From: Schmidtea polychroa
Taxonomy: Eukaryota
Assembly: GCA_044892525.1 (NCBI GenBank)
Contig: CM097885.1
Span: forward strand, 217,496,001-217,560,000
DNA: 64,000 nt
Direction: 5' to 3'
The notes below the pieces were generated by a model. It saw nothing but the letters and a program-made list of their open reading frames with translations, made no database searches and had not been told where the DNA came from. Position numbers and translations under genes: made by a program. The first letter of the stretch is position 1; each line of letters starts with the position of its first letter. Below are positions 15,525 through 42,878 of this stretch, piece by piece.

Positions 15525-16520
15525 TAGCTCCCCGCAGCAACCTCCCCTGGGAGGGGGCTACTGCAGAATTTTTTTTTACTTTTTGGTTACGTAACTGCTG
15601 TGGAGTACTGCACTTATTTTTTCTGTGATTTTCAATAGAAAAACGGTTCTATAGAAAAAAAAGCCATGATTTTTCTGACTATAGTGTGGGGGTCTCCTTG
15701 GTTCTGGGATTTACAATACAAAAAAGGTCTATAAAAAAAGACATGATTTCTCTGACTATGGTGAAGGGGTATCCTTGGTCCTGGGGTTTTCAATACAAAA
15801 TCCGATTCTCGTTAAAAAAGCAAAGATTTTTCTAAGTAAATTAAGGTGAGTCTCCTTGGTACTGAGATTTTCAATACAAAAAGGGGGTCTTCACTAAAAA
15901 ATCGTGGTAAATTAAGGGCTCAAATAGGTAAATTAAGGTCTAAAATTTAAAATTACAGTAAATTATGGGAAAAAATTTAAAATTGAAGTAAATTATGGGT
16001 TCAGATAAGTAAATTAGGGTCTTGAATTTAAAATTAAAATAAATTGATGTCTAAAAATTGAATTAAAGTAAATTATGGTCTAAAATTTTTAATTAAAGTA
16101 AATCAATGGATATATTTGGTAAACAAGGGCTACATTTTAAAGTTAAGTAAATTAAGGTAAAATTTTAAAATTAAGTAATCAATGGTCTAGAATTTTAAAT
16201 AAGTAAATTAAAGTTAAAAATTTTAAATTTAAGTAAATTAAAGAAAGATTTTTAAATTTATTAACAAAAAGTTTGAATAACCACCAACTTTTTGAGAAAT
16301 GTAATTTTTTAATGAAAATTTTTATGAAATAATTTTAAAAGATAATTTTAAATGGAAATTTTATGAAATATTTTTCAAATGACAATTTCAGATGCAAATC
16401 TTTGTGAATTAATCAATGACCACATGAAATTATTTGTTAAATATGTAAATAAGAGTTATATTTGGTAAATAAGTAAATGAAGGACTAAATTTTAAAATTA
16501 AGTAAAAAATTTTGAATTAT
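15525..16520 (-). repeat. Inverted copy of the AT-rich repeat arm seen at 2662-4160
   Basis: gactatagtgtgggggtctccttgg is the near reverse complement of the motif near 3890-3920. Same subrepeats. Confidence 0.6.
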
Positions 16521-16926
16521 TATGAGAATGTTCGTGGCACCCTCTGGTAAAAAAAATCTTCATTTTAGATGCATGTTGAGCTATAGACCCGTGTTGGGCT
16601 GAGTCGAAAATTTAATCGTTGAAAAATAAGAAAGTAGGGAAGTAGAACATTAAGAAAAATAAAAATAAAATAAATAAAATCAGAAATAAAATAGAATAAG
16701 GTATAAGGAAAATAATAATTAAGACATAAGAATTAAAACAAAAAATAAAATTAAGAAAAGATTAAAATAGAACAAGTTGACAAATAAATAAAGAGGAATT
16801 CAAGAAATAATAAGGAAATTAAGGAAATAAATAGAAAAACATATTAAAAATAAAGAAAATAAGGAGAAAACAACCTAAAAACAAGAAAATTATATTAAAT
16901 TAATAGAAATAAGCGGTACTCAACTC

Positions 16927-17060
16927 TGATTGGTCCGCACAAATAAGAATTTGATATATATACAACTACCAAAAACATTAAATTTACTGTTAACCCCGAG
17001 CATTTCATAGGTAAGAAAAAATGTTTACTGTTTTGACTGTTAACCCCGAGCATTTCATAG
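16927..17060 (+). promoter_or_regulatory. LTR core promoter: inverted CCAAT, TATA-like box, predicted TSS 16986, 25-nt exon 1 and 50-nt intron 17011-17060
   Basis: ctgATTGG at ~16927-16933 and TATATA at 16955, 31 nt before 16986. AG|GTAAGA donor at 17011 and TTTCATAG acceptor at 17060. The same geometry occurs in the diverged solo LTR (TATA 58878, TSS 58848). Confidence 0.6.
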
Positions 17061-19466
17061 ACATCTACAACTCACGGAGACTTATTTCAAGGATCAGCAA
17101 TACAAGTAGAGCAACAGTTAATTCGAAAAACTTCACAGCAATTCGAACTCAGTCACAGCAATCGACATTCGACGAATTATCATCAGACTAATTTGGAACG
17201 ACTAACGTTAATTTTCCGATTCAGCCTAATTCCATAGTAAGGGATTTTTATTTATGATATTGTTTTTCGAAGTTAATAGTAAATATGTATATTTAATGAG
17301 TAATTAAACTTTTAAATTTAACCAGACTCTCTTTTCATTTGATCCTGAATAACGATTTTGATAAAGTAAATAATTTAAATGTTTAAAAGTATGTGTTGGT
17401 AACAGGTGAACTCTTACATAATTTTTATGGATATTTATTTTGAAGTGATAGTTTTATGATTTCTAATATTAACGAGTAACGTGGAGTTGAGATACTCCAT
17501 GTCATGGTATGAGGTGCCTTCGGGAGCTCAGCCGGTGGACATGGAGTATTTCAATCACGCAGCTAGATTGGGCCGAAATGTGAAGGCTTCTTCACGGGTC
17601 CAATTGCTGAAGGACTTAAAATCTGTCAGAGTACCGAAATATAGACCGAAAGGAAACCTTATGAAATTTTCGAAAATAGGATATGTGCTTCACAGCGACT
17701 GAGGGAGTTCTCATATTAACTCTGTATTGTCCAGAGTCGTCTTACAAGACATTCATGCCACTTCTGTCTATAAATCCGAACTTACCATGTGGGGGAAAAT
17801 ACCATTAAACATCCATCGCTGGTTTTTCCAACATATCGAGAAGTTGAAATTGCATTCGGTAGACTTTTGAAAAAGTAAATCTAATTTAGGTCATCTCTTT
17901 CAGATGCGACATCCAAATCTTAGCATATGATGAGGAATTTACAATAAAGGAAAAGTAAAACATAAAACCACAATAATACTGTATTCAATCACATATATTA
18001 ACAAAATCTGGTAATACCCATTGAATAATTTTCATGCTGTTGCGTCGAAATATCCACTACTGAAATATGCTTCATAGAGTCTAGTTGGCTGGTTCGTAGA
18101 GATCTTCCATCGTTCAAAAGCATCCAATATTGAGGAAATTACGAGTCGTAGTAAATAAATCCAACATCATAAGCTCAGATGGGAATCGACACGCGATGTA
18201 ACATTTGCAGTTCGCTCAGTACGGTTGATAGTTACAGATAAAATTTCCATCGAATAGGCACCCATACATACAGACATACTGCTAACATAACTATGAGTAG
18301 CGTCATCCGGTCAGAAATATGCATGAGAAACAGCAGAATCATTCCGAATGCCTCTCACCGCAGGGAATGCCGCCATGTGTCACCCTCTCTAGGATTCTTA
18401 GTGTGTGAGTAGTAATCAGTGGTCCTATTAGATAATGCTGACATGAGATGTGACTTCCAGATGACTGACTCTTAAATTTCACTACTGATAAAGGCCATTC
18501 GTACCACTAAAAAGATAAGCCAAATAACCAGTAACCGACTACTAAGATAAGGGACTCTCTAAAGTGCACTCATTAAAGATAATTTTGCTTAAATTAAATA
18601 TTCTAATTAAAAATCGAAATTGTTGAAGGGGTATTTTAATTAATAACCGAAAATTCAAACCAAACTTTATAACTAAACCATAGGAAGTTTTACCTAAGTG
18701 TTGTAGAGGTTTATCGTAATTCTAATTAGATGTTACAAATAATAGTAGTAGCCTTCGAGCCAAATTTAAATTAACTAAAGTATCTACAGGAATTTTTGGG
18801 TTATAAAATAGCTAGTAATATTGTAGTTAAATTTCTCATATTCCCTGTAAATGACGTATTGTAATAGAAAACTAAATCCGATAACAAATTATTATGTAAT
18901 TACAATATTTTTACGATGCTATATTTCTACGACGATATCACCGTATGGTATGGATAAGGGGTAATCATAAAATAGTGACGTATAGTTTATACGAAATTAC
19001 GAGTTGTTACTTATTCCGCTACTTGAGGTAAGGGTGCAAGTTTTTACTAGTTGCATTTGGTCCAAAAACCTTATTTTGCATTAGAATAACAACAAATAAT
19101 CAGCGAAATTTAAACGAAGTGTCGTATAGTGTATTTGTAATGAAACAGGGTTATTCGCTCCGGTATGAATAAATCCGTAAATTGCCTTTATGTGCGATAG
19201 ATAGAAATCCAACTCGAACGCGATAGACGAAAATTAAAATTTTTACAAATAATTTGCATTCGTCAGGGAAGCAATCAGGGCGTTGGGGAATAATTTTCAG
19301 TAAAGGATACGTAAAATATTAGTAATCAAGGGTGAAGGGAGGGATCCTGTTTCATCGACTCGTCTTGTTTTCTTCCAGCACTAAGTATCCAATAGCGAAT
19401 AAACCGTATATCTGATCCGAAATTTTTAGATATAGTCACCATAGTTTTCTTCTTTAGCCATCCATT

Positions 19467-20219
19467 ATGTTATCAAACAACAAATCAGCTCTACGTCCCT
19501 GCTTCTCCTGCTCAGATAAAAATGCAGTGATTAAAGATCTTCAAGCCCAGATCGGTCGATATAAACGAAAAATCGACGAGCTGGAAGGGACATGGTTTAG
19601 TCCCGCTCGGATGAAGGAGATCCAAAAGAAGCTCGATCGTAGCGAGCATTGCCGGGACGCGCTAATATCTGAGAGCCGTGCCCAAAGAAGTCTAATCAGA
19701 GAACAATCCGAGGCACTGCATAAGGTTTACGTGCAGGCGGCTACAACCCGAAAAATTGTGCAGATTCCCATCCGAGAGGCCGATGACATCTTTCCGCCTC
19801 ATCACAACCTTTCCTCGAATCCATCTCCACCGTTCAAGAGACCGTGCCGAGACTGCGTCGAAACCGAATTTTCCCCCAAGCGACCAGATGTTGTCGTCAC
19901 GGGTACCAGTAAGCCCCCCAATGCTAGTCCATCTGTATCAGTCACCCTTCTGCAAGTGGCATCTTCAAGCAAACCCAAGCGCAAACAACTCTCTCGTGCG
20001 GAGCGCAAGAAGAGACAGCGCGAACGCGCCACTACCAAGCCAAACATCCCATCAATAGAGGACTCAACCAACGGTGGCAACTCTCACGTGTCCATCGACC
20101 TAACAACGGGACCCTCAGCGCGAATCATATCAGCCGCTGGCGTAACGTGGGAAGAGAACGCTTCCGAGTTTTTTAACCTCGACGAATTATTCGCCGACGC
20201 TGAATGGGAGAAACAATAA
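19467..20219 (+). CDS. LTR-encoded 250-aa protein of unknown function (CxxC, coiled coil, basic NLS-like tract, acidic C-terminus)
   Basis: Intact in both LTRs; homolog in the solo LTR. Preceded by a pyrimidine tract and AG (19456-19457); AATAAA at 20343. Confidence 0.8.
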   Translation: MLSNNKSALRPCFSCSDKNAVIKDLQAQIGRYKRKIDELEGTWFSPARMKEIQKKLDRSEHCRDALISESRAQRSLIREQSEALHKVYVQAATTRKIVQIPIREADDIFPPHHNLSSNPSPPFKRPCRDCVETEFSPKRPDVVVTGTSKPPNASPSVSVTLLQVASSSKPKRKQLSRAERKKRQRERATTKPNIPSIEDSTNGGNSHVSIDLTTGPSARIISAAGVTWEENASEFFNLDELFADAEWEKQ

Positions 20220-20760
20220 AACCCCAGTGGCGGTCAGGATGAAGAACAAGGATCCGATCTATGTTGATTATGATGTTTTCTCTTCTTTCGACAAACATTA
20301 GTAAAGTGTACAGCTGAATCCTTGTGTCATAACGTTGAAATTAATAAATCTTGTTGTCTTACACGTTTTCGCTCATGAATAACTAGACTTTAATTAAGTG
20401 GGTTGAGTAGAGAACCCGCCAGATCTAGTGAGAAATTCCCAATTTGTATTCAGCGAATCCTGATAAGTGGTTGTGTAAGGAAATGGACGTAAGCCCTTCT
20501 AACGGCAGTCGTGAATGGGAAGTCGAGGCCTCAGCAAGGAGTAGTTTTAAGGCAGAAGCTCACCTGCTTGTTGGCGTCTCGCCTGCATAGTGCAGTACCA
20601 ACGTGAAGTGATTCACGGGCACTATGTTGGAAGAAAGTTATGTGGGGTTTCACTCCAGGTTGACAAATCGGTGGCACCTTTTATTCGAGATGGACAATCA
20701 ACCCTTAGACCCGTCAACATGGTAGAGTGGTCAGCCGAGGTGTAACCCCAACATGATTTT

Positions 20761-20778
20761 TGGGGGCTCAGCCGGGAT
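20761..20778 (+). promoter_or_regulatory. Primer-binding site, tRNA-Pro type
   Basis: TGGGGGCTCAGCCGGGAT matches the classical tRNA-Pro PBS TGGGGGCTCGTCCGGGAT at 16/18 and starts 7 nt after the LTR end. Confidence 0.85.
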
Positions 20779-21091
20779 CTACAATCGATCGAAATTTCTA
20801 TTAACGAATGCGAAATTCACCGGGATTTTCATAAAAAATTAAAGGGATTTATCACATCGATTTTCTGTTTCCAACCGACCATTGCTTGACGAATGCAAAT
20901 TGACTATTGATTATTAACTTATATTAGGAACTAAGTAGAGAAAATCAAAATGTAGATAATAGAAAAATTAAGGATATAAATAAAGGAGATAAAGTAGTCA
21001 AATTAAATAATTAACAATGGTTAAAGAAACCAATTAACGAATTAACTATTAATTTACTACATATTATTAAAACATTACTTTTCCAACAGCT

Positions 21092-21577
21092 ATGACAGAA
21101 TTCGCGAACCAAATGCAACAACTGCTCAAGTTTATCGATATAGAAAACGACTCCCTAACAACACTGACGCATAAAAGAGAAAAAATCAACGCGATATTAC
21201 TGCAAGCAATCGGACAAACACCAGTCGTACCTAATCATATGATATTAGCCACAGGCCTAAGTCGCCCAGATGGAAAAATAAACCCCGAAACCGTATATCA
21301 GTGGTATCAAGAGAGATTGAACCACCCAACATTAAATCTAGATTATCAGCGTCTAAAAGACTCACTAAATACAATACCAGATGCAATCGAACAAAAAATA
21401 CAGGAAAAAATTAACCAATTACGAACTTGTATAGCCTGCAAACTCCGTCCTATTCGCGTATTATTCTTGCCGTGTGGACACCTCAGTCACTGTGAAGCGT
21501 GTGTAAAAGACCTAAAAAGATGCACGATGTGCAAATATGAAATAAAAGAGACCCATATGGTCTATTATGGCGAATGA
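21092..21577 (+). CDS. 161-aa protein with C-terminal IAP-type (C3HC4) RING finger, no BIR
   Basis: CIACKLRPIRVLFLPCGHLSHCEACVKDLKRCTMC at the extreme C-terminus. Acceptor ttttccaacag lies 2 nt before the ATG; AATAAA at 21682. Confidence 0.85.
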   Translation: MTEFANQMQQLLKFIDIENDSLTTLTHKREKINAILLQAIGQTPVVPNHMILATGLSRPDGKINPETVYQWYQERLNHPTLNLDYQRLKDSLNTIPDAIEQKIQEKINQLRTCIACKLRPIRVLFLPCGHLSHCEACVKDLKRCTMCKYEIKETHMVYYGE

Positions 21578-22180
21578 AACGGCCGGCGATGTAACAGCAA
21601 GTATACGATGTTTGAACAAGAATGCATGAAATTGTTGAAGTAACACGTACTGTTAATGATTCAATCTTTATGTTTATGATAAATAAATCCGTCTTTAAAA
21701 AGTTTTGATGATTAGGACTAATAAAATTTGCATGACGAATGAATATTTGCGTGTTTGTTTTGTTTTAATTTTTTTTTCGGAATCAAATGAAGAGAGGGTT
21801 GAATAACGTGGAATTAGTCCCAATATAGACTGCAGGGGTACAAACCGAGCCACCTTCGGGCGGTACGTCTTATTGCAAGAACCCGTTGGGAGGGGATAAC
21901 TGATCAACCCAAGTAAGAAGCGTAGGGCGGGGTACCATCGCATATGATGAGAAGTTTTTGCGACATGACTGATCACCATGCCAATGTAGAAATGGATCAT
22001 CGCGATCGTCGTGCGTTTTGAGCAAGGGGGGAAAGGGGAAACACTCCCAAGCGGTAAAGATTAAGTCGACAAATTAAAAGTAGACAGAGAAAATGGTAAA
22101 CTAGAGTAAAAGAAGAAAAAGAGAAATAGAAGCATGCAGAGCGAGGAATATTGAAGCCGAGCAGTCGAATAATCCAGCCG

Positions 22181-22669
22181 GAAGGAGGAAGATTGAGCTG
22201 TTGAATAGTGCCAGCCAGTCGTAAGGTCGAGTCGTGAAAAGTCCAACCGATCAAGAAGGAGGAAGATTGAGCTGTTGAATAGTGCCAGCCAGTCGTAAGG
22301 TCGAGTTGTGAAAAGTCCAACCGATCAAGAAGGAGGAAGATTGAGCTGTTGAATAGTGCCAGCCAGTCGTAAGATCGAGTTGTTGAATAGTCCAACCGAT
22401 CAGGAAGGAGGAAGATTGAGCTGTTGAATAGTGCCAGCCAGTCGTAAGATCGAGTTGTTGAATAGTCCAACCGATCAGAAGGAAGAAGATTGAGCTGTTG
22501 AATAGTGCCAGCCAGTCGTAAGATCGAGTTGTTGAATAGTCCAACCGATCAGAAGGAAGAAGATTGAGCTGTTGAATAGTGCCAGCCAGTCGTAAGGTCG
22601 AGTTGTGAAAAGTCCAACCGATCAGGAAGGAAGAAGATTGAGCTGTTGAATAGTGCCAGCCAGTCGTAA
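22181..22669 (+). repeat. Tandem array, 74-75-bp unit x ~6.6, in the element's 5' leader
   Basis: Units start at 22181, 22255, 22329, 22404, 22478, 22552 and 22626. Each unit is an internal dimer (gagctgttgaatagtgcca / gagttgttgaatagtcca). Confidence 0.95.
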
Positions 22670-23979
22670 AGGCCTAGAAAAGCGAGAGATAGCAGTTAAG
22701 CTACAATGAGATAATATTTAAATTACTAGTGATATGGAATATTAAAGCTAGCTAGAACAAATTGAATGTAATTTTGAAAATTCGAGTTTAGAGAGGAAAT
22801 AAACGAGCTCGTGGAAAAGAAAATAGGATTATAATGAAAAAGGAAAGGGAAGAAGGAAACGAATTAAAGAGATAATAGAAAATAAAGAATAGATGAAACG
22901 ATGATAATGAGTAAAGAGGAAAGTAACTAACTAACTAAAGGGATCCCAGTGAAGTAGAGAAACTCTACGGAATATTTTTTTTTGGTTAAACCGGGAAAAT
23001 GCATTTTATTGGTTCCAGAGTAGAACCGAGCTTAATAATAGTGAATATGAAAAGTAAAATAGCGACAACAGCGCAAAAGGATTAGGAAAATGAAAGGGGG
23101 GTAATAAGCAGAGACCGACAACGACCTATTTTTACTATAATTGATAACGAATAGATAATTATTACGACTTTATAGATAATTGTTACTACCCCATATAGAT
23201 AATTTAAAATCGACGGAAAATACGGGCTGATGGGATATTATAAACCGCAGACAGGATTTCACAAAAGATAGGGGAAGCACAAACAGAAACCTAAAAGGTG
23301 TCTGTTTTTGAATGTTGTAGAAAGAATGATGAAGTCGTGTAAGCAAATGCAACACGAGATCATTTTTTCATTTTAGATATCAAGCCAATCCAGCCAACCA
23401 AGACAATCCAGAACCTGCACAAAAGGAATTCGAAGAAAATCGACAATCAACCAAGGATAAATCCATTCAGAACCCGCACCGAGAGACACAGCAACCGGAA
23501 GACTCCAGAACGGAAGAAGTATTAGCAGCCATCTGCCAAGGATTAGTAAATCTCCTCAGGATCTCAGTAGCAGATTCATACAGAATATTTATCGAAGGAA
23601 ACACAATCAGAACCGAACGCGTCCAATTCAATAGCCACTAATTACCAAGAAGCGTAAGAAAGGAATCACGGATAAACCCAATCTTAGATCTTCTAGTAAG
23701 CCAGGAGACGTATTATTTTCAGGAGACGAATTACAACAACTCAAGAGAGGACGATCCATTAAACATCAAAGAGGAATATCACAAGGATCCAGAAGAACCA
23801 ATCAAGTACCCATATTCGACCAAGAAAATCTCGGATATACCCCTAGTCGATCTCGAAGTAGAGAAAGTCTGTCCGATATCACTAATAGTTTAGCAACGTC
23901 AACCGAGGAATTATCAGCCCAAAGTTTAGTCACATCGTTAGACAATTTAAAAGAAACAGACGAACCTAGAACACCAATC

Positions 23980-26900
23980 ATGACGAATGTCGTAAAAACC
24001 GACGAGTATAAAGAGAAGTTCAGAGGAGAACCGTTCAACGGAAATGCAAACAAGCTAGCAACGTTCATAACTAATTTTGAAGTTTATATCACTGTGTGTG
24101 GATGGACACCCGAAGCAATTAGTAAAAGGATGCCGTTGTTTTTGTGCGATAGTGCATTAGAGGTATATTTAGAAGCTAAAGAGAGAGACACGAAATTAGA
24201 AAAGTGGGAAGATATTAAAACATTCCTGAAGAAAACCTTCGGAGCCAGTAAGCCAATCAACCAGGCGTTGGGCGAACTAGCAAATAGGAAACAAAGAGCA
24301 AACGAATCGATAACATTATATGCCAGTGAATTGCGGAGATTAGCGAAGAAAGCAATGAATGGAAAATTACCCGAAGAAAATCTGATCGGTTATTTCATAG
24401 AGGGATTACGCCGAGAAGAAGTAAGAGCCTCAGTAGGTTGTCAAATGTGCAAAACATTAGAGGAAGCCATAGATTGGGCTACAAGATGCGAGCTCCACCT
24501 TCCAGCTCAAATGAATCTTATGCAAGAGGAGGGAAGGATAGCGACAGCAATAGCGAAAGCGGATAACGGAGATAACAACAATCAAGAACCGAAAATGAAT
24601 CAATTTATACCAGGAGCGCACCAAATTTTCAAACCACCACAAGGACGATCAAACGGGAATAATGGTAATCGTAACAACCCGAATAATGAGAACAATTTCA
24701 ATAATCGGCGAAATATGAACGATAACAAGCAGTGCCGAACATGCGGTAAACCAGGACACTGGGACAGAGATTGTTATAGAAATTCAAATTGTAATCGTTG
24801 CGGACGGCGTGGACATACCGAAAATGTATGCCAATTGCGAGGCTGTTTTAACTGTGGTCAGCCAGGTCACATCTCCAGAGATTGCCGAGAAAGGGGCCAA
24901 CAACAACGACCACCACAGCGAAATAATAATTATATAGCGAATCCGCAACGACAAAGTAACCCTAACGAAGGAAAACAAATGAACGTTATGCAGGAAATTT
25001 CGCAGATGAAACAGATGATGCAACAAATGATGAGACCAAGACAAGAATCAGCACCACAACAAACCCAGAATATACGTATGATGAGGAGTACCGAAAATCT
25101 CAACAATTATGAAGTGCATCAACATGTACAAGAATGGCAAAGGCTACAGGCCGAGGAAGAGAGGATAAAACAAGAACGCAACCAACAACGACAAGAACAA
25201 CCATTGCGAATAAATATGATGAAGTTAGTAAAAGACATGAAGAGCCAGTATTGCTACAATTACGGGAAAAGCCCAAGGGTAGTACCCATGACTGAACCAG
25301 AAAAAGTAAAGGAAATAACAACGGAAATGAAAACAGAGAATTCAACCACGATTTCAAAAGGAAACCAGAGAATTCAGAAAATATTCTGGAAAAAGATAAA
25401 GGATAAAATCGAAAAAGAACATAATAAAGCGAAAACCGAGACAGAAGATGAAAATAACAAGAGCGAGGAACAAACCAGTCAACTAAATCACCAAATGCTA
25501 CAAGAATCAGAATCAGAAGAAACAACAATATTCGAAAGAAAGAAACTAAAGAGAGTACCAAGGATGAGAAACTTGCAAATCAATATGATGAAAAGGACAA
25601 AAGATGTAGCATCGTCAGACGAAGAAGAAGATTATGTAAGTAGTTTGGGTGGAGAAATACTACAGCCGAATGAAATAAGCGAACCCTCAAAAGGGGAAAT
25701 CAAAGAGGAAGAAAGCGGAAACGAGATAACCAGTGAAAGTGAAGACGAAGATATCGAAATAAAGTTGAGAAAAGCAAGGGAGGAAGCGATAAAACAGGTA
25801 GCCGAAATACTCCCAGTAGTAGTGAGGAACCAAGAGTTCATCGACGTAATACCATTCAGGCGATTCGTGCAAAAAGTGATGAAATTGGAAAGAAACGAGA
25901 AAGATCTAATACCAAACGAGGAAAAATCAATTATAAAAAATTATATGGAAAAAATGAAGCAGGCCGATACCACGCGGTATGTAATAAAAATTGGAACGAG
26001 TAGAGGACTTGAAAGAATGTGGATAAAAAATACAGTCACCGACGAACTTTTCGATTGGATACGAGAACATTTGGGAAGTTCGAGAAAGAAAGAATATCTG
26101 TATCAATACCAAGGAGAACAGATCAAACCAGATATGCACTTAGTAGATGCACTAATATGGCCAGGAGAAACGCAAATACTGAAGTTGCATAAAGAAAAAC
26201 AACTAGCCAACCTTTACGACTGGGCTAAAGATGCCAAGGCAGAATATGATTTTAATATCAAATTGAAATTAGAACAAATAAAACAATGTACTCTGAGACG
26301 AAACCTGGATAAGCTGATCAAACAAATTCAAGAACAAGTAGAAGACAACTGGGATTTACTCATCACCAGACGAGCCCCAGCCATGTACGAACTAATGAGC
26401 CGGTTGCGAGATACAGAAATGCTCCGAATGAGTGATTGGAGAACCATAAATTTGATCCACAAATATGGAAGGTTAAGAGAAACCCAGCCACAGAGGTTGG
26501 AAATAACCATATGGTTACCGAACGAAGAAAAACGACGAATAAAAATGAGCAATCAGAGTACAGTGGATGACTTGGTATCAAAAATAAACCAAGAGATAAC
26601 GGAAAAGGTACGTAGCGAAAGTAGTGATGGTATGGTGGATGATGTAGTCATGATGTACGATAAGATAATATTACGAGCGGAGGACGACACCTCGTTAAGC
26701 GAAATGGGTATGTGGGACAATCATCAGATAATCAGGATAGTACCAATGGATGAATTCCGAACAAGAGATGTAACATATCAAAAAGAAATACGAGACCGGA
26801 TGAAAACGTTGTATCAAAAATCTACAGAAATAATTGAAATCCACCAACAATGGTTAAAAGAAAAAGAGCTACAAGGAAAAATCACGAAATTAAATACCAG

Positions 26901-29900
26901 ATCCTGCAGACGAACCCCATGGGAAAGAGTGTGGAATGCAGAAAATAAGGAATGGGAAATCCGGAAAGGAATCTTCGTAGAAACAGACATTGGTGAGACA
27001 GAAAGTGAATCGGAGGAAGAAGAAGAGGAACCCCCAGAATATGAAGAGGAAGCAAGGGGACAGACATCAGATGACGAAAGCGAGACGGATGTCACATCAG
27101 AAAGCGAAAATGAAGCGAGACATATTCATGCAATGAGGAAAAAGGAACGTGAATATGCTGATATGGACGGCGAGGAAGCGACGGAAGCAAGAGAACGAGA
27201 AGAGAAAGAAAGATATAAACAATTAGGCGATATTTTAGCAATGGGAGCGAAAAATCAAAAACGCCAGGTAGTAGCGTTGGCTAATATCATCTTAAAAACA
27301 TCAGAGAATATCCACAATCTGAGAGGAATGGCAAAGGCAATAGAGGAATACCGGCAATATAATGAATGGTATCCAGAACAGCTAGAACAAATTATTCGAA
27401 AATGGAGAAATCAGGAATGGGCACAAGACACCCAGGAGAGGTATCACATCCGAATCAAGTATCCGGACAAGAGCATCGAGGAACTAGAGGTGCATCCAAC
27501 AACAAAAATTAGAGAATTAAAAAAGAAATTAGCATATGAAACTCCATTCCATCTGCAACTGTTCGGAAAATCACTAGACGATAATGCAGACGTCGGGATA
27601 ACACCCATGAGATTGGAAGAGACAAATGTGTTAACAATGGCAGAAACGTTGGGGAAACCGTTAAAAAGGAAAAGTAAAATTATTAAACCAACAAAAGGCA
27701 GTTTGAGTACTCCAAGTCCGAACAAAGCACCAAGTAAATCTAATGAAACTGAAGAAGTTGAAGAGATAATCCTGGAAGATAGTGACGATGAACCAGGAGA
27801 AAGATCACCGCTATTAGTGAGATGGCCGACAGGAGCCGAAATGTGGACTAATAACCAGCCATCAACGAGTTATCAACAACCAACGAAACTGAACATCGAA
27901 GAAATCATCGACAATACTACGGAAACCGAAACGGATGAACAATTCCAGAAGCAAAGAGAACCAACGAAAGTAACACCAGAAAGTCAAACCGACAAAATAA
28001 TAGACGAATGGAATGAGTGGCTAAGAAATAACGATAGCTCATTACCCAGAACGGATAACGAAAGAAATCCGAATTACGAAAATACCAGAGAAGCAGGAAC
28101 GATGATGGAAAAACGGGCAAAAGGAAGACCCAAGAAACAAGGAGAAAAGTCTGAGTTCAAAACCAAAGAACAATTAAAGCAAGAACAAGGGCAAGTTCGA
28201 TTAGAAAAATTGGATAAAATAGTATGGGATCTAAAGGAAGCCCAACCAACGATCGAAAGAGGAGAAAAATGGATACGAGAATTGTTAGAAGATATGTTAA
28301 TAATAACAAACCCACAACTTCGACGTTTGTGGCAACGGAAAGTAGCCAGTACGGAAGCTAGACAATTATGGCACACCATTTCGGGGATAATCCCAAAGTT
28401 AATCAAAGAGAAAACGAAAACCACCAAAACGGATTGGGACGAAACAAAGAGAGTGATTGAGCAGCTCACGACAAATGCAAATGATGACGAGCATCACCTA
28501 GTGGTAATCACTTATTTGATGTATAATTTGATGGGACTAGCTGCGAGGAAAATACCAAATAAACAGTTTGCAAATCATGTAGAAATGACCGTTTCAATCA
28601 TAGAGAATACTATTGAACCACACATTATTCGTGCAGGAGGATGGAAAAGACTGATACAAGCGCCACGGAAAAATGAGCAAGAAAGGTCGATGCAAGTTAG
28701 ATTGAAAAAACTGTTAAATGAACTAGAATGGGAACTACCGATGAAAGATCCCGCAAGCAGAAAAGCATCAATAAATTCGTTAATGATGACTATGATGATA
28801 TGGATGTTGTGCACAAGTGGAGCAACAGGTTTCACCATCTACGATTGTGATAACATGATAATGAGAGATAAATACTCATTGAGAGACATAGAAGAATGCA
28901 GACAAGCCTCACCCAACAAATTGGACATCGTGAGAACAAAAGTTACTTACCATGTATATCAAGAATCAGATTTCATCAGAACGCAAGCAAGGGAATGCGT
29001 AGTATCAAAAAAGGTACTCGCATATTACTGTGGACAATATTCGTATTCGACTCTTATACTACCTGGTCTGGATAAAGAAATCGTATCAATACAACGAGAG
29101 GATTGTAAAGAGCTATTTAGAACCGGAGCGCTAAAAATGCATAACGGAGTGACGATTCACGGACAAACTGGAATGATTAAAACCGAAAGTGTTTACGTAT
29201 CCGGAAAAGTAAAATCATCAGATGGGTCATGTAACGGAGGTACGTATACGATCCGAGGCGAGGTAATATCGGGAGTAGTAGTGATCGAGTCGTACACGGT
29301 CGAATTAAAAGAATACGAAGCGCAATTTGACGCAAATAATTATCAAATGAAGACCAACCCAGCGTGTAAAGCTACAGAAAACGTATGCAGGACAGGAGTA
29401 TCAACTATAATCTATGAAGCTAATACCCAAAAATGCCGACTCCAACTGTTAAAAAGTGCTTTGTTCAATGAAGTAAAAGGAGAAATATATGAGAACGAGA
29501 ACGACGAGGATGGAAACGACAGAGTGAGAATGCGAAATGGAAAACCAATGCCACCATCTCCCAGAGAAAAGAGACTTTCAACGCAGAAGACACCAACAGC
29601 ATTAATCACAGACGATCCAGATCTAGGTATGAGATTTATCAAAGAGAAAGAAACCACCAAATGTGACAGTATAGTATATAAAACCAATTACGCAGGCATC
29701 TATATGTCGAGACAAATAATCGATAGAGCAGTGGGAAAGATAGCAACGGAGGACGTAAAACTATACTTATATGCAAATAATAAAATGGATTTTCTATTTC
29801 ATCGCGGACAAACGACCTTGCAAAAAGTATATTACGATCTGATACAAAACGATTGTTCATTGAATAAAGAAATATTGAAAACAAAGCTAGCTATTGCGAT

Positions 29901-32900
29901 AACGCACCCAGATAACACGATGCCATCACTCCCATTACCAGATGGACACTTTGGTAGAATGGTAGGAGAAGTAATGTACACATACCAGTGTACCAAGACG
30001 TATGCACGAATGCCAGAAAAATCCATACTACCCGAAAAGAGATGTGCAAATGAATTAGAAATCCGTTATAAAGGACAAAATCGATTCGTCCAACCAGTCA
30101 CTAGAATTATGAATCCAGTGGGTTTCTACCCAAATCTCTTTAACTGTTCTAATGCATACGGACCTTTATATGAAAGGCCCGATGGGAAATGGATGATGTT
30201 ACCGGGAAAAACCATATCCGAGGAGCCCAAGAAATTTGGATTAATAGAACTCGCCACAGAGCTGGATTTCAAACCTATAGACGTGTCAAACGGTGGTATG
30301 TATTCCCCAGAAGATCTAGAAACAGCACGACTTAACGTACTCTTTCCAGCCAGACGAGAATCCATTTTGTCAAATATGGTTACAATAACGGGGGGAACAA
30401 ATTATCAATCAGGCCCGAATTACGAGCTGCTATTATCGCCAGACCATTTTCAACAGGCTACGTCAAACATGATGAAAGCAATGTGGGGAAGATTCTTAGT
30501 TTTTGGACAAATGATGGCCGGGATATTAGGGATCATACTCATAATTCAGATAGTCAGAGTAATACTAACACAAATGTTAGCTTGTTTCGATATATACAAG
30601 CGGGAAAAGAAAGTTAATTGGAAAATGATAGTAGGCTTCTTACCATTTTTAGCTAAGACCATGGTATTACATGGCCACTCAAAAGACATTCATCGGATAA
30701 AGCGATTGATTAAAATATTAACAAAGATTAAAGGAACCGACGAGGAAGTAGGCAGACGATTCCGGAAAGTAATGTACGATGAAGCAACAAGACGACAATT
30801 GAAAAAGAATAAGCCAAAATTCTTGGACCGATTTAGAAGCCAATCATCTAACAGCGATAGTGACGACGATGATAACGGGAACGATAAATGTCTTTATCCA
30901 AACAGAAACCCAAACGAAAAACCAATGGAAACGGCACCATATTGGGAAAAGGAAAAGACAAACACCTGGATCGCCAATGGAAGCTATATACCACCGGATA
31001 TCGTGGGACCACAAACAGCTTTGACCATGACACAAAATATGTATCCGCAATTACCGAGTCAACCCGGTATGCATTATATGCCAACACGACGTACCAAAAG
31101 TGTAGATCAAGCAGATGACGTAAGAACAATAGCAGCGATGAGTTTACCTGGAGGTCCAGCAGTAACAGTTATGATTCAAATCAATGGTAAAGAAACCAAT
31201 GCTATGATAGACACCGGAGCTAATGTATCAGCGATAGCGATTAATCAAATCCCCAGTAAACACTGGAAGGATATCGAATCAACAACAATTCACATCATAG
31301 CATGTAGTAAAGAAACAGTGGACGTGGTCGGAAGATGGTGGACTACATTGAGATACCAGGACAACGAAATTGAAACGTATTTGGCAGTAATACCAAAACT
31401 TAGCGTACCATGCATAATCGGAACGGATTTGATGCCAGAATTATTAAAAGAAGTCGTAATAGACTTAACAACTATGTGTCTAAAAGACAAAACCGGTAGA
31501 ATATGCAAAATGAATGCAGTAATCAGATGTCCAGAAAAAATAATAGTACCAGCAAAATCGCAGATGATTTGTCAGATAAAAGTGGATACGGGTATGGAAG
31601 GAGAAGTTATCTTTGAACCAAGCAAGTCATTCGAAAAGCGACGAGAATTACCACTCGCAAGAGAAATAATCACAATAAACCAAGAAGGAGTGATACCGCT
31701 CAACATCACGAATTTCGAAGAGGAAGACAAAATCATTTATGAGAACGAAAAATTGGGAAGATTGACCCCAATGATGGACATAGAATTACCGAAAGTGACC
31801 AACGAGATGATCAAAGATGATGAATTATGGACAATAGATAGTATGTTGTTGACGAATAATGAAAAGAAAAAATTACACCGATTGTTGGTAGAATATAAAG
31901 ATATATTCGCCATCTCAGACTTAGACTTGGGTACATGCGATGTTACCCTACATGCAATACCCCTCATAGATGAAACTCCAATTGCATTAAGACCATACAA
32001 GCTAGCAGAAATGCAAAAAGAAATAGCCGAAGCAGAAGTACAAAAGATGCTAGACGCAAAAGTAATCGAACCAAGTTGCTCACCCTGGCAATTCCCAGTG
32101 GTCATGGTGAAAAAGAAAGATGGCACCCAACGATTCTGTATCGATTATCGGAAGTTAAACGCAGTGACCAAGAGAGATACCTATCCATTGCCAGACATCA
32201 ATGAGATGTTATTGATGTTGCAAGGGGCAGCATATTTTACTTCTTTAGATCTAAAAAGTGGATACTGGCAGATTAAAGTCAAAGATGAGGACAAAGAGAA
32301 AACAGCTTTCACGTTGGGACGAGATCTATATCAATTCAGGAAAATGCCATTTGGACTGACCAACGCACCAGCATCATTTCAACGGTGTATGAACTTTGTC
32401 ACCCATGGAATCAAACAATGTATGGTATATATTGATGATTTACTAATCTATTCAGCGACATTTGAACAACATCTAGAAGATATCCGAAACGTATTTATTA
32501 GATTAAGACAGTGGAAACTCAAACTCAAACCATCAAAATGCGATTGGGCAAAGGAAAAAGTCACGTTTTTAGGACACATAGTGTCAGCTAAAGGAAAGGA
32601 GCCAGATCCAAGAAACATTGAGAAAATAAAAACATGTCCAGCACCGAAAACTGTCACCCAAGTTCAGGAATTTCTAGGATTATGCGGATACTATCGCAAA
32701 TTTATCAAAAATTATGCAGGAATTGCAAAACCAATCCAGGAATTAGTAAAGAAGGACATTTCGTTCTTATGGGGGAAGGAACAACAAGAGGCGTTTGAAA
32801 CGCTGAGAGACAAACTAATCGAAGCACCTATCCTCGTACACCCAGATTTTAAGAAGCCATTTCTATTGGCAACGGATGCAAGCGGGTACGCGGCAGGCGC

Positions 32901-35900
32901 GATTCTGGGACAATTGGACGATGAGGGAAAAGAGAGAGTAATCGGGTATTACAGTCGAACATTCAAAAAGCACGAAAAGAACTATTCGGTAACAGAACGA
33001 GAAGCATTGGCTATAATACAAGCTATCAAACACTTCCGATATTTACTATGGGGACATGAGATATGTATAACCACAGATCATCAACCATTAGTGTGGTTAG
33101 GGCAACATAAAGAAGCGTCCAGTAGACTGATGAGATGGGCCATGCAATTGCAAGAATACTCCCCATTTATAAAATTTAAAGCGGGAAGAGCAAATGCCAA
33201 CGCCGATTGTATGTCAAGATTTATTTTCCCAGATTTGGTGGATTCAGAAATGCAACGCATATGCTTGATAGTAGCGGAAGATTTGGATTTCTGTCAATTA
33301 CGAAAGGACCAACAAGAGGACGCGGAATTAAAACAAATTATCGATTATGTAAAAACCGGAAAGACAGATGTATATGCGAAAGACCAAAAATTAAAAGAAC
33401 ATATGGATAAACACCGACACCGATATATTATAGAGAAAGATTGGTTGCTGATAATGGATGGGGAAAAACGATTAATGTGTATACCGGAAAACCGACGAAA
33501 AGAGTTACTAACGCAATATCACGATGGGAGATTGGGAGGACATATGTCATCGAAAAAGACGTTAGCAAGAATGAAACAGAAATATTTTTGGCCTACGTTA
33601 ACTGAAGATGTAACCGAATGGGTAAAAAATTGTCTAACTTGTGCAACCAGGAAGAATACTGGATCGAAATGGAAAGCACCTTTAACGCCAATGCCAGTAC
33701 CAATAGAACCAATGACAATGATATCCATGGACGTAGTTGGTCCACTACCAGAGTCAGATAAAGGAAACGTTTACATTCTAGTGATCACAGACTTTCTTAC
33801 GAAATTCCCAGAAGCATTCGCGATGCCAGACCAAAAAGCTAAAACAATCGCAAAAATTTTGGTAGAAGAGATATGTTGCCGATATGGAACACCAAAACAG
33901 ATATTAACCGATCAGGGAACTAATTTTATGAGTGAGATAATGAGCGAAGTAACAAATTACTTCAAAATAGCAAAACTAAGAACATCTCCATACCACCCTC
34001 AAACCAATGGGATGACGGAAAGATTTAATGGAACACTTATACAAATGTTATCAAATTACGTCGATCGTCACCAACGAGATTGGGACGAATATATAAACCT
34101 ATGTCTTATGGCGTACAGAATGTCAATTCACGCATCAACGAAAATGAGCCCATTTAAATTAATGTACGGAAGAGAGTGCAACATGCCAATGGACCTGGAA
34201 TACCAACCACCGATATCGCAGTATATGGAGATCGATGATTATGTTACGAAATTCAAGGAAAGAATGCAAGAAATTTGGGAAACTGCGGGATTAAATATCA
34301 AGTTCTACCAGGAAAGTTATAAAGATTTACACGATCGAAAGAAAAACGTGAAGCAACATACGTTCCAAACAGGTGATTGGGTAATGATAGAAACCCCGGA
34401 ATTAATTCCAGGAACCACAAAAAAATTACAACGCAACGGAAAAGGACCATATGAGATCTTATTCGTAGGCGAAACTAATGTAAGAGTGAAATTGGTAAAT
34501 AACCCCTTTACCAGACCAATATACGTAAACGTGGCACGATGCAAATCAATTCCGAAAACAGCCACTAGTCAACCAGAAGGCCGTACATTAACCACACGTT
34601 CGCAAACCTACCGAATGAACATGATGCAACAACTCGCAGAACCGATCACTGGACGATTAGGTATCCAACCATCAGAAGCGGAAAAGATTGTAAAAGAGGT
34701 AAAAATTAGAATACCTGGATGGGCAAAAGATCGATTAGATTTCGAAATATTAGGAGGATTATTGACGATGATCGAGAACTATGCAAATAGAGAAAGGACA
34801 CACCCATTATTGCGAGTAGTCAAAAGCCAATGGCCAATATTATTTACAATAACAGATCACTACGGAGACACACCATTACACAAACTCATGAAAGTAGGTA
34901 ACAACGAGCAAATACTAGAAACAATAGAAGCATTTCACGACTGCAAGCGATCAACAGAACAAACAAACAACCAAGGTTACACACCATTAATGATAGCCGC
35001 AAACAGAGGCAAAACAAAAGACATTATAACCGCATTACTCGATACTGGATCGAAAATAACTACACAAGACCACGGGCGGAAAAACGCTCTACATCATGCT
35101 ATCGAAGGGAGAAGTACCGAGGCGTTCACGTCATTGATGGAACTACTATCATATGAGGACAATCGAGAAGTCGGAAACATGTATGATGGATTGTTAACAG
35201 CGATCAAAGAAAAACTGACGACAATTACCGGAATATTAATTACATGGAGAAATCCAATTCAAAACGATTATATGATCAACGTAAACGAAGCGTTCACGAG
35301 AGGAGAGAACACGCTGATGAGAGAAGCTATGAAAGGACATCATTTATTCGAAATTCCGAATCAATTACTAGAACGAGGGATAAAATTCACAAATCATAAA
35401 GACGAACAGTTAGCAAAAAAGCGAATCGACACATTCGAAGAATCCCTATTCCAATTTACTAACCAAGTACGAAATAAATATTGGGAAACGGTAAGTGTGT
35501 TATATATGATGGACACAATGAACAACATCCGCGAGAATTACCTGGATATTATCCAAATACTTACAGCAGAGGAACGAATCAATAATCCAAACGGAAAGAA
35601 AACGAAAATAAGGTATGAGAAATCCAGGGAATCAAAGTCAACAACGAACCAAACGGTCACAAACAACGTCATCGAAACCAAATCAATGAGTATAGATCAA
35701 GAGGCAATAATACGCAAAGCAAAAGAAGTGTTCTTTGAGGAAATGCTAGAGCTGCCAGACGAAATAATATTGTCCAAAATAATAAAAGCCGTACACACAT
35801 ACGCAAGAGATCAAACCACGGGTTTAGATATCGGGAAAATCAAAACCTTCTTGCCTCGAGCATTTACGATGGTAACGAAGGATTCCAGAACACCCCTACA

Positions 35901-37969: not shown

Positions 37970-38353
37970 TTGAAAAGTGTATATAAATTAGGAATGGATC
38001 AAGGAAATAACGAAATGAACCACAATACAGTAACTGAAGAATTATGGAAGCAACAATGTGCCGTATTAGCACAATTAGTGTCCAATTTGCAAGAACAAGG
38101 ATTGACGATGCACAGAAACCTGATCGAGAGTATGAACAGAGGATTTAGTTATTTGAAGATAATTGAAGACCAGAGGTTAAAAATCGAACAAATGCAAAGA
38201 GAGATAGAGAGGATAACCCAATATAGCCGTCGACAGGAAATTGAAATAGACCGAATGAGGGAGGAAGCAGAACAGATAGAAATAGAAGACTGGTCGGAAT
38301 GGCTAATGAATAGAGAGGAGAGCGGACACGAAGCCGACTCTTCCGAACCCTAA
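37970..38353 (+). CDS. Small coiled-coil accessory protein (probable start ATG 37994)
   Basis: E/Q/R-rich heptads; AG 2 nt before ATG 37994. Confidence 0.65.
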   Translation: MKSVYKLGMDQGNNEMNHNTVTEELWKQQCAVLAQLVSNLQEQGLTMHRNLIESMNRGFSYLKIIEDQRLKIEQMQREIERITQYSRRQEIEIDRMREEAEQIEIEDWSEWLMNREESGHEADSSEP

Positions 38354-38438
38354 ACCAAACCTAGCTTAAAATGTAAATAATTGTAAATAAAATATCGAAC
38401 CTGTATCGATAAGAACTACTTGTACATATAATTATAGA

Positions 38439-39827
38439 ATGGATAAACGACAAAGAGAAGAGTTCAGAGAGATTGTCGAGCAAGTCCGAAAATCTACAAC
38501 GATCAGAATACACAAACATGTTATGTGCGGAATATGTGAAAAGTTGTTAAAGGAACCTCACCAAACGCAATGTGGATGCCGAGCATGTAAAGAATGTATC
38601 AGTGAAGCAATAAAGAATAGACCACAGAGGTGCCCGGTGTGCAAAGAGACACTAATATCGAGTTTAGAAGACACTAACGAGGATAAAGCCGCAGTGAAAG
38701 ACATGTTAAACACCAACCTGGGATGCAAAAATGCCCCATGCGAATGGAAAGGAGTAATATGGAAGGTAGTACAACATATGGGAGAATGTATGTACAGAAT
38801 TGGCCAGTGTGAAAGGTGCCATAAAACCATTCGAGCAAGCGAAGAAAAAGAGCATCAAAGGCAGTGTGAGGAGAGATTGGAAAGATGTGAACACTGTGGA
38901 GAAATAGATACGTGGATAAATCTCACCCTCAAACATCACAATGTCCAAGAGGAGAGAGTATGTGCGGAGTTCAGTGGGGAATGCCCAAACGGATGTAACC
39001 AAGGGGAAATAATGAAGGTGGCACAGCATCTAAGGGAATGCGAAAAGAAAAGAATGACATGTGTACTAGGTAGATGGGGTTGTCAGAAATTACTACACCG
39101 AGGTGAGTTACCACATCATTTAGTAGAAAATGCTTCAACTCACGCAGAAATGTGGTCGACTGCGTTACGAGAAAGCGAAGAGAAAGTAAAACAAATGGAG
39201 ATAGAGATAACATCGTTGAAAGTGTTAGTCAAAGAACTACTAGAAGAAAGGGAAGCGTTCGAAGAAGCCCGAGCAAACATAAAGATGCAAATAAACCGAA
39301 TAGAAATCAGTAATAATCAGGCCAAGGAGCTACATCAGAAAATACGGGAAATAAATCTAAATGAGATAACCCCAACAGCACCCTACATATGGAAAATAAC
39401 GGGAGTAAAAGAAAGAATACGAAAAGCAAAAACCGGAGAAGAGACAAGAATAACAAGTCCTGCATTCCATTCTTGGAAAAATGGGTACAAAATGAAAATG
39501 AAGATATATCCCAACGGGGACGGAACCGGATTAGATACGCACTTTTCGATTTTCTTTCTATTATGTAAAGGAGAATACGACGAAATATTAGAATGGCCGT
39601 TCCAGGCAAAAATCGATATTACTCTGATGAACAACCAAAGTATACATGAGCAAAGCTTCAAAACAACGGGGAATCAAATAGCTTACCAGAGGCCCCTCAA
39701 CGAAGAAGGATCAGCAACAGGAGCACCTACGTTCATCTCACAACAAAGAGTAGAAGATATGGCGAGAAATGATACCATATATATCAAGATGACCGTGAGG
39801 AAAGAGGAGAAGGGTAGAACGGAGTAA
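38439..39827 (+). CDS. TRAF: Full-length TRAF homolog (RING, TRAF zinc fingers, coiled coil, MATH/TRAF-C)
   Basis: CGIC..L.EP.QT.CG.R.C..C..CPVC RING; repeated CxxC/HxxxC fingers; MATH motifs YIWKI, SPAF...GYKM...YPNGDG...HFSIFF...GEYDEILEWPF, GAPTFI, DTIYIK. Confidence 0.95.
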   Translation: MDKRQREEFREIVEQVRKSTTIRIHKHVMCGICEKLLKEPHQTQCGCRACKECISEAIKNRPQRCPVCKETLISSLEDTNEDKAAVKDMLNTNLGCKNAPCEWKGVIWKVVQHMGECMYRIGQCERCHKTIRASEEKEHQRQCEERLERCEHCGEIDTWINLTLKHHNVQEERVCAEFSGECPNGCNQGEIMKVAQHLRECEKKRMTCVLGRWGCQKLLHRGELPHHLVENASTHAEMWSTALRESEEKVKQMEIEITSLKVLVKELLEEREAFEEARANIKMQINRIEISNNQAKELHQKIREINLNEITPTAPYIWKITGVKERIRKAKTGEETRITSPAFHSWKNGYKMKMKIYPNGDGTGLDTHFSIFFLLCKGEYDEILEWPFQAKIDITLMNNQSIHEQSFKTTGNQIAYQRPLNEEGSATGAPTFISQQRVEDMARNDTIYIKMTVRKEEKGRTE

Positions 39828-40020
39828 CCAATCGAATAATGTGGTATATAATAATCTGTATATATCGGTGTATATAACCAATAAAATATTATATAATAAT
39901 AGTATGAAAACCCTAAATACGAAAACCCAAAAATGATGCGAAAATTCCCCAAGAAACAGTAAATAATGAATAAATTCCTTTTTCATAATAAAAAGATTAA
40001 TCGATGTCTATGATTTAGAG

Positions 40021-41076: not shown

Positions 41077-41245
41077 GGGTGGATGAAAAGATGAAAAACT
41101 AAAAACCGGGACGTATATCCCAAACAAAAAAATTAAAGTACAGTAAAAGTATTTGAGGGACTGTAACCCTGTGTAAATAAAAACGATATAAATGTATAAG
41201 TATAAGTCGCACTGTAGCGCATGATTAATTGTAAATATTATAGAT

Positions 41246-41944: not shown

Positions 41945-41984
41945 ATTAAGGGTCATTAAAACCAATTGTAAATAAACATAATGA

Positions 41985-42653: not shown

Positions 42654-42878
42654 ACTCTAACTCAAACATTTGTGTTATTATATGTGGAAACTTTTATTGT
42701 ATGTACAAACTATCACCTTAAGTGATACTTGCTTGATCTTGCTTTGACCTTGATCTTACAATAAAAATTTTATCATTGTTGTATAATTTTCGTGTTCGTG
42801 TTATATTTTTTTTTGAATGAATGAATTAAGTTAATTATGCAATTGCGGGACGCAATTTTGATGGGTCCCCGAGTGATT

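Follow-up and report, generated by a model that had tools for sequence, protein, structure and literature searches.

The open reading frame (ORF) at 19467-20219 is a real gene that lies inside the long terminal repeat (LTR) of what appears, from its length and domain content, to be a Burro-type Gypsy element, and its protein is maintained by purifying selection within and across LTR families. The arrangement of promoter, splice and polyadenylation signals around it suggests that the LTR's own promoter probably drives the gene, giving a short spliced mRNA, and we tentatively propose (probability about 0.42) that its product steers the element's intron-containing genomic RNA in the manner of HIV Rev or of CERV, an accessory protein of the C. 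elegans element Cer1. The element type is already known. The window (the whole 64,000-nucleotide stretch analysed) contains the element, whose LTRs belong to family A, and a solo LTR of a second family, B:

16592-20753, plus strand: 5' LTR (repeat comparison; TSD CCCG)
42879-47040, plus strand: 3' LTR (repeat comparison)
19467-20219, plus strand: LTR gene of family A, 250 aa, inside the 5' LTR
45754-46506, plus strand: second copy of the LTR gene, inside the 3' LTR, differing by D211N
20761-20777, plus strand: primer-binding site, presumably tRNA-Pro-like, 7 nt from the LTR end
21092-21577, plus strand: internal accessory ORF with a C-terminal RING finger, an acceptor-like AG lying 2 nt before its ATG
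23980-37833, plus strand: single polyprotein of 4,617 aa with Gag, CCHC, fusion glycoprotein, protease, RT, RNase H, integrase and ankyrin repeats
37994-42653, plus strand: five 3' accessory ORFs, one of them a RING-TRAF/MATH protein (38439-39827)
55227-59383, minus strand: solo LTR of family B (TSD AAAG; empty-site twin near 49453)
56528-55761, minus strand: LTR gene of family B, 255 aa, with the ATG directly after the acceptor AG
Within the solo LTR, minus strand: CCAAT at 58897, TATA at 58878, donor at 58823 and a 47-nt mini-intron (from subfamily alignments), a hairpin at about 58191-58127, a poly(A)-like AATACA at 55633 and the U5 motif at 55481

The element measures 30,449 bp, is flanked by a 4-bp duplication and has LTRs of 4,162 bp each (TG...CA) that differ by 2 mismatches. 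Pfam domains of the polyprotein follow the Gypsy order, with a fusion glycoprotein (PF24664, E 2e-70, residues 1868-2207) in frame between Gag and protease, and ankyrin and MATH/TRAF cargo is present, MATH being encoded by a separate ORF. Among the 13 ORFs scanned Pfam returned no BIR domain (a RING match alone), and no Bcl-2-like domain was matched in the element ORFs. In the part of the published account that we could consult (PMC6431247), the planarian Burro/GYPSM1 elements exceed 30 kb, have long LTRs and a huge Gag-Env-PR-RT-RH-IN polyprotein of roughly 4,900 aa, in which Env stands in frame after Gag and before Pol, and carry ankyrin repeats, MATH/TRAF and accessory ORFs. As far as that portion of the account extends, the window element resembles them in its size above 30 kb, single polyprotein, in-frame Env, ankyrin, MATH/TRAF and accessory ORFs, and differs in that MATH/TRAF lies in a separate 3' ORF and the RING ORF has no BIR match, whereas Burro1 has B-IAP (BIR plus RING). 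On length and domain content the element is probably best placed as Burro-type and is not assigned to Burro1. For flatworm elements the Gag-Env-Pol order has been confirmed and Cer1 placed as sister to a flatworm element, according to the accessible portion of that report, which makes no mention of Burro (PMC13524379).

Several further features of the element and its surroundings were observed. A polypurine tract of canonical form is absent ahead of the 3' LTR (42820-42878), and TGATT occurs at the internal border of both LTRs. A primer-site-like GCTCA core (20761-20777) recurs in the U5 block (20489-20640) and in the intron hairpin described below (17520-17540), and a 74-nt tandem repeat lies between the RING ORF and gag (22158-22669). 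In five of six internal accessory ORFs (21092, 37994, 38439, 40021 and 41246) YAG stands 1-2 nt ahead of the ATG, a spacing that suggests splicing of these ORFs from the same leader. Outside the element, an intronless ORF of 422 aa (50990-52258, minus strand) encodes a ubiquitin C-terminal hydrolase (PF00443, E 5e-34); no tRNA genes were found in the window.

The original prediction described ORFs with common motifs in two LTR families, and these motifs (LRPCFSCSDKNA, EGTWFSP, EHCRD, QSEALHKVY, FPxHH, the basic tract and the LDELFAD/IDEMLAE end) were all found, the A and B proteins being 39% identical over their alignment and 55% identical over residues 8-114. The remainder of the LTRs aligns as poorly as had been claimed, with blastn outside the ORF recovering an A-rich 5' part and a 32-nt U5 motif alone. 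A splice acceptor precedes the ORFs, again as described: AG stands directly before the ATG in 49 of 50 B loci and 5-10 nt before it in all 50 A loci, and across these 100 locus contexts, read by eye, the sequence upstream of the acceptor turns over while the link between acceptor and ATG stays.

Genome searches yielded 6,960 and 6,756 candidates, from which 150 and 149 matches ranked by similarity were scored; internal stops occur in 2/150 and 24/149 matches of these similarity-ranked lists. The shared U5 motif has at least 1,484 pattern matches in the host genome (0 for the reversed control). Among the first 30 of these, an unranked sample that counts both LTRs of some elements, a homologue of the gene is found in 27 and an intact ORF in 15, while the other 3 have no homologue within 1.5 kb. 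Twenty loci chosen for divergent U5 motifs, which added groups C (fragments only) and D, include 14 with a homologue and 6 with none within 5-6 kb. One U5 variant group of five loci (L133, L134, L143, L144, L145) has no detectable homologue within 5-6 kb and represents either decayed fragments or an ORF-less family. Three evenly spaced copies of the gene at each of C4:12790027-12813056 (spacing 11.1 kb) and C2:177680106-177733279 (spacing 26.2 kb) are tandem elements with common LTRs.

Codon models were fitted to 34 of 50 A loci and 47 of 50 B loci after removal of partner LTRs, two duplicates and one broken-start copy (the duplicated insertion L073 was kept). They gave an omega of 0.183 for family A and 0.161 for family B, with omega=1 rejected in both (2dlnL about 304 and about 1057), and the variable columns fall by codon position as 62/48/164 of 250 (A) and 133/93/242 of 255 (B). 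Each of the other five frames has 5-13 stops per sequence, and omega is 1.7-3.9 in four of them and 0.34/0.28 in the antisense frame that shares third positions. Constraint differs by region, with an omega of 0.09-0.10 in the N-terminal domain (0.096 for residues 1-113 in A), 0.39-0.48 in the linker, 0.06 (A) and 0.12 (B) in the basic motif and 0.13-0.22 in the tail. Across 18 intact A, B and D proteins, residues 8-114 are 50-61% identical between groups with an omega of 0.044, and the tail has an omega of 0.06 across families. In the comparison of elements, 79% protein identity in the N-terminal domain goes with saturated synonymous sites. The purifying selection that had been proposed, for which dN/dS was the suggested check, is therefore borne out both within and across families.

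Changes shared between copies are more constrained than private ones (omega 0.17 vs 0.33 in A, p 0.005; 0.21 vs 0.72 in B, p 2e-13), which places the selection mostly in transposing lineages. A young B clade with an omega of 0.37 for private changes was considered as a sign of selection on solo LTRs and was discounted, the copies having been ranked by protein similarity. In the same element pairs (the window element vs L152-L159) synonymous divergence of the LTR gene exceeds that of RT (0.25 vs 0.06, saturated vs 0.21 and saturated vs 0.11). This high divergence lowers omega, while the third-position excess is independent of it; the excess synonymous divergence may reflect LTR exchange between cores or escape from small-RNA targeting.

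Comparison among LTR subfamilies outlines a predicted transcription unit around the gene, all of it on the plus strand:

16926-16962: core promoter with a reverse CCAAT box (16926-16933) and a TATA box (16955), in the same layout in A, B, C and D LTRs
16986-17010: predicted start (TATA+31) and 25-nt exon 1, placed from spacing and the repeat boundary
17011-17060: GT-AG mini-intron of 50 nt, the final 25 nt of which (17036-17060) duplicate exon 1 exactly (LTR comparison)
17061-17236: predicted non-coding exon 2, ending at a conserved GTAAG donor at 17237 (LTR comparison)
17237-19457: predicted intron 2, with the acceptor AG at 19456-19457 and a 3' 1.8 kb that is unalignable between subfamilies
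17480-17609: family-specific double RNA hairpin in intron 2 (covariation and folding z)
20343-20348: predicted poly(A) signal AATAAA, with AATACA or AATATA at the aligned place in B-type LTRs
20489-20640: predicted U5, with a GTAAG donor-like motif and a downstream block common to A and B LTRs

In the subfamily alignments the reverse CCAAT and TATA boxes are followed by a GT donor about 55 nt on, and the mini-intron measures 45-52 nt with GT-AG ends among the LTRs compared. Its 3' end copies exon 1 with no mismatch in 30 of 35 LTRs representing 16 exon-1 variants, even though similarity among these variants is only about 49%. The repeat starts at a distance of 27-31 nt downstream of the TATA box, and over the 10 nt ahead of the repeat matching is at background level (4.5/10). 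We place the RNA start at the repeat because an exact copy is the trace that reverse transcription of a spliced 5' end would leave; by this account the second copy would be rewritten by strong-stop transfer after 5'-end splicing. The mini-intron ends in an exon-1 copy in each subfamily (16986-17060 and 58848-58777 in the window; L061-L100, L140, L147 and L150), and nine further promoters have a single exon-1 copy and no mini-intron. Precise intron-less copies exist (L065, L080). Re-copying of spliced RNA during strong-stop transfer is the likely origin of this pattern; recombination between the short repeats could also produce the intron-less copies. Another locus, L136, was considered as a fully spliced LTR and set aside, since it keeps an AT-rich stretch and the acceptor and points instead to a deletion or a short-intron copy.

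The leader is free of ATG in 27 of 28 LTRs scored. A poly(A) hexamer stands at the aligned place in 10 of 10 rows (4/4 A, 6/6 B), 120-140 nt after the stop codon; additional AATAAA sites occur four times in intron 2 and once overlapping the stop codon, so that the predicted site is chosen by its aligned position alone. Two patterns designed for A copies lacking intron 2 gave one unrelated match and none, and intron 2 is retained. Among the 15 matches listed from contigs of four runs there is no joint to the ORF acceptor, and one contig that skips the mini-intron has its start in the flank and more probably stems from the DNA of a copy without the intron; a second comparison, with the B LTR, gave no match.

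With its promoter 2.3-2.5 kb upstream in the same LTR, the gene departs from the analogy originally drawn to MMTV sag and foamy virus Tas as U3 or 3' genes, and a U3 model in which expression comes from the 3' LTR only was rejected on this layout. The gene is instead predicted to sit in a 3.4-kb R region, and the promoter position implies a strong-stop DNA of 3.8 kb. Because promoter, splice sites, ORF and poly(A) signal all fall within one LTR, a solo LTR holds all of the parts, and the earlier suggestion that solo LTRs would be complete expression units agrees with this predicted anatomy.

The hairpin in intron 2 is the most stable window of the leader in both families (z -6.7 in A and -4.4 in B), and is accompanied by compensatory changes in 8 of 52 predicted pairs among 12 A sequences and in 6 of 24 among 17 B sequences; groups C and D have weaker hairpins at like places (z -1.3 to -2.5). 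An A query finds 21 A-type loci and a B query 20 B-type loci, none crosswise, and Rfam returned no match in 16500-24000. Elements of the two families are 97-98% identical in RT, 92% in Gag and 94% in nucleocapsid, while their LTR proteins are 38-42% identical and their hairpins unrelated, so that the hairpin tracks the LTR and not Gag. Hairpin type and protein type are linked by descent from one split, and their pairing is therefore no proof of co-evolution.

The protein is predicted to combine a dimeric helical N-terminal region with a basic motif and an acidic tail, encoded on the plus strand as follows:

19500-19760, residues 12-98: CxxC, then a pair of long helices kinked at EGTWFSP; a parallel homodimer is predicted
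19800-19856, residues 112-130: H-H-x(9-13)-C-x2-[C/H], a second candidate metal site, present in 18/18 intact proteins, one of which has P for the first H
19971-20033, residues 169-189: Arg/Lys-rich motif predicted to be helical, a candidate for both NLS and RNA-binding arm
20121-20216, residues 219-250: conserved acidic-hydrophobic tail (protein comparison)

The AlphaFold model contains confident helices at residues 15-43 and 46-98 and a basic helix at 177-189, with disorder elsewhere (mean pLDDT 58). When modelled as a dimer, residues 6-135 form a parallel, in-register pair scoring 0.57, compared with 0.00 for the best of 3 controls. Among microbial structures, 21 of 30 solved pairs and none of 23 single chains attain the mark used, and the eukaryotic figures are 17 of 29 and 0 of 30; the model was made without an alignment, and simple coiled coils may pass through likeness to solved structures. 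At least 74% of contacts are the same between dimer runs (pLDDT 66 or more), and the interface covers residues 12-91, including C12 and C15. C12, C15, C62, H85, H113 and C127 are invariant in 18/18 proteins, and residue 130, the last position of the second site, is C in A-type and H in B- and D-type proteins, a pattern that suggests two candidate metal sites. The Arg/Lys-rich motif is likewise present in all 18. The nuclear, zinc-type coiled-coil protein of the original prediction thus finds support in the modelled dimer of two long helices, in the six invariant Cys/His positions with their candidate metal sites and in a basic motif of nuclear type.

No stretch of membrane type is present, the most hydrophobic 19-mer averaging 0.83-1.45, and none of the export-signal patterns searched for was common to the families: the best column covers 9 of 18 proteins, which are all of B-type, and falls within the coiled coil. 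A bZIP reading of the basic region was rejected, because the hallmark Asn-x7-Arg motif is absent by eye and no zipper follows in A-type proteins. In the tail, a hydrophobic-x-x-hydrophobic-hydrophobic motif occurs in 16 of 18 proteins. The published rule for acidic activation domains (charge -13 to -8, W+F+L at least 6) has, in the consulted portion of its source, a sensitivity of 36-45% and a precision of 0.2-0.7 (PMC10550315); the tail agrees with it in 6 of 7 A-type proteins and in none of the 11 B/D-type ones.

Homology searches isolate the protein. Pfam assigned no family to either LTR protein of the window, and over 24 members gave scattered matches of coiled-coil type only (best 5/24 at E 0.006). 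A search of 5.8 billion proteins with one sequence, with an alignment and at longer lengths found no homologue, 1.84 billion representatives gave 0 matches at E 0.001, and PDB sequences gave one basic low-complexity match (E 0.064). Foldseek, run with the model of mean pLDDT 58, found nothing at E 0.001 in PDB and viral structures and no DNA-binding fold, and the best ESM Atlas scores (0.84-0.85) are those expected by chance; hepatitis delta antigen, at 0.77, is a possible lead. The sequence, profile, fold and language-model searches revealed no resemblance to Rev, Rex, CERV or any other protein. Homology to a known host gene fragment with no LTR-linked function had been named as a finding that would speak against the original prediction, and no host homologue turned up in any database searched.

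These features can be assembled into a model for how the gene may act. Transcription would start near 16986, exons 1 and 2 would be spliced to the acceptor at 19457, and the RNA would end about 20 nt after 20343; given this start, splicing and 3' end, the default product of any LTR, whether 5', 3' or solo, would be the LTR-gene mRNA. Genomic RNA would accordingly have to retain intron 2 and pass the first poly(A) site. The LTR protein may dimerise through its coiled coil and enter the nucleus, where its Arg/Lys helix would bind the hairpin of its own family and its acidic tail would recruit a host factor. The outcome would be intron 2 retention, read-through of the 5' poly(A) site or export, yielding full-length genomic RNA, with protein and RNA target held in one self-contained LTR module. 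In our analysis the gene layout and the intronic hairpin fit such a post-transcriptional role at least as well as transactivation. However, the families share no export-signal pattern, neither sequence nor fold likeness to Rev, Rex or CERV was found, the hairpin might instead serve in packaging, or in export through a host factor, with no need of an element protein, and the acidic tail suits an activator better in family A.

The last point bears on an alternative, the one originally put forward, that we regard as possible but somewhat unlikely, in which the protein is a Tas- or Tat-like transcriptional transactivator of the LTR promoter, acting as a dimer at the promoter or on the nascent hairpin, with the tail recruiting coactivators and positive feedback spreading across copies including solo LTRs. 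Its domain order (conserved N-terminal domain, basic motif, C-terminal acidic-hydrophobic tail), the cross-family omega of 0.06 and the hydrophobic motif in 16 of 18 tails all suit an activator, and the activation-domain rule, as given in the consulted portion of PMC10550315, agrees in 6 of 7 A-type proteins, but with none of the 11 B/D-type proteins and with low sensitivity and a precision of 0.2-0.7. A DNA-binding fold was not found, and both the CCAAT and the TATA box of the promoter are intact. A distance of 480-640 nt separates the hairpin from the predicted start site, unlike TAR, which lies at +1. A hybrid, in which the basic arm sits on the hairpin and the tail activates transcription, is possible.

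Other readings appear less probable. A counter-silencing factor or host antagonist, binding a host chromatin, piRNA-pathway or cell-survival factor and having no target in its own RNA, we consider improbable: Burro elements are repressed by piRNAs according to the accessible parts of two reports (PMC10558129, PMC8532177), this element carries further host-modulating cargo (RING, TRAF, ankyrin), and the LTR gene diverges far faster than the core, synonymous sites included, as an arms race predicts, but selection within families is strongly purifying and not diversifying, and the family-specific intron hairpin is left unexplained. A structural or replication helper, such as an RNA chaperone for the long strong-stop transfer or a particle or nuclear-import adaptor, is more improbable still; the implied 3.8-kb strong-stop DNA, the basic arm and the dimerisation domain speak for it, whereas identity between A and B is 91-98% for Gag, Pol and Env and 38-42% for the LTR protein, so that tight contact with them is disfavoured. 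That there is no functional gene at all, the frame being a captured host fragment or open through recent amplification or RNA structure, is very improbable and is largely refuted by the codon-selection results. Intact ORFs in only 15 of 30 unranked LTRs, the absence of a homologue from 3 of these 30 (within 1.5 kb) and from 6 of 20 divergent-U5 loci (within 5-6 kb), and the drift of private changes towards neutrality (omega 0.33 in A, 0.72 in B) would fit this, but shared changes remain constrained (0.17 in A, 0.21 in B), the third-position excess and the 79% N-terminal identity at saturated synonymous sites stand against it, the databases searched hold no host homologue, and decay after insertion is expected for any element gene.

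For the Rev/CERV-like reading the closest known system is CERV, which in the accessible part of its description is made from a spliced mRNA, has a leucine zipper, a KRKK signal and a Cys finger, and is needed for Cer1, a Gypsy/Ty3 element, to export its genomic RNA (PMC10309623). It is the one tested precedent that we found, in literature consulted in part, for an accessory regulator in a Gypsy element. Within the same portion, the LTR protein resembles CERV as a Gypsy/Ty3 accessory protein without outside homologues, with a spliced mRNA (predicted here), a coiled coil, a basic signal, a Cys-rich site and predicted multimerisation, and differs from it in that CERV is 517 aa long, has exons in common with gag, comes from the internal region and contains a G-protein-like domain and a candidate export signal (PMC10309623). 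The LTR protein, by contrast, has 250 aa, is encoded wholly within the LTR and ends in an acidic tail; no likeness to CERV appeared in database searches, and its model lacks a globular domain that could correspond to the M and G domains of CERV. To the extent of the Rev/RRE descriptions compared, the likeness to HIV lies in a small basic protein made from a fully spliced RNA (predicted here) and a structured element in an intron lost from its own mRNA, and the difference in the lack of a conserved export signal and in having gene and RNA element both within the LTR. The LTR protein would on this comparison not be classed as a Rev-family member, and a Rev-like mode of action is a proposal.

Foamy virus Tas, HIV Tat and MMTV sag are accessory genes tied to the LTR that are situated within U3 or ahead of it and depend on the 5' LTR or on an internal promoter, unlike the present gene, which lies downstream of its LTR's own promoter. 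Tas also has a basic motif and a C-terminal acidic tail, as the LTR protein does; Sag is a membrane protein, whereas the LTR protein has no membrane-type stretch and its gene is not in U3. Plant LTR retrotransposons contain extra ORFs conserved family-wide, comparable in this to the LTR gene and proposed, in the accessible portion of the report, to act like retroviral accessory proteins (PMC7264820). The text of the Burro/GYPSM1 account, so far as available to us, names no gene inside the LTR (PMC6431247). In the literature searched we found no description of the Burro LTR gene, which may have been annotated earlier in the primary Burro papers, their figures or supplements or Repbase, and, primary Burro descriptions aside, none of a whole spliced gene inside R.

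To our knowledge retroviral LTR-borne genes need a full provirus for expression. The anatomy described here would instead make a lone LTR a gene, and there are at least 1,484 such LTR ends in the genome, with an intact ORF in half of the 30-copy sample. As a doubtful extension of the Rev/CERV-like reading, the LTR may be an autonomous regulatory module, in which a 3.4-kb R holds a complete spliced gene and its RNA target, the mini-intron is kept by re-copying of exon 1 at each reverse transcription, the module turns over on a near-invariant Gag-Env-Pol core, and hundreds of solo LTRs act in trans as sources of family-specific regulators, under which full-length elements change over from the short LTR mRNA to genomic RNA. 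Should the product indeed control how genomic RNA is spliced, where its 3' end forms or whether it is exported, Gypsy-type elements would have a second Rev-like system besides CERV, and we know of no other; if true, it would come with a defined RNA target and natural non-cognate controls (A vs B). Burro1 has been reported, in the accessible part of the source, to support planarian stem cells and regeneration (PMC13465017), so that a master regulator of such elements would be directly testable by RNAi.
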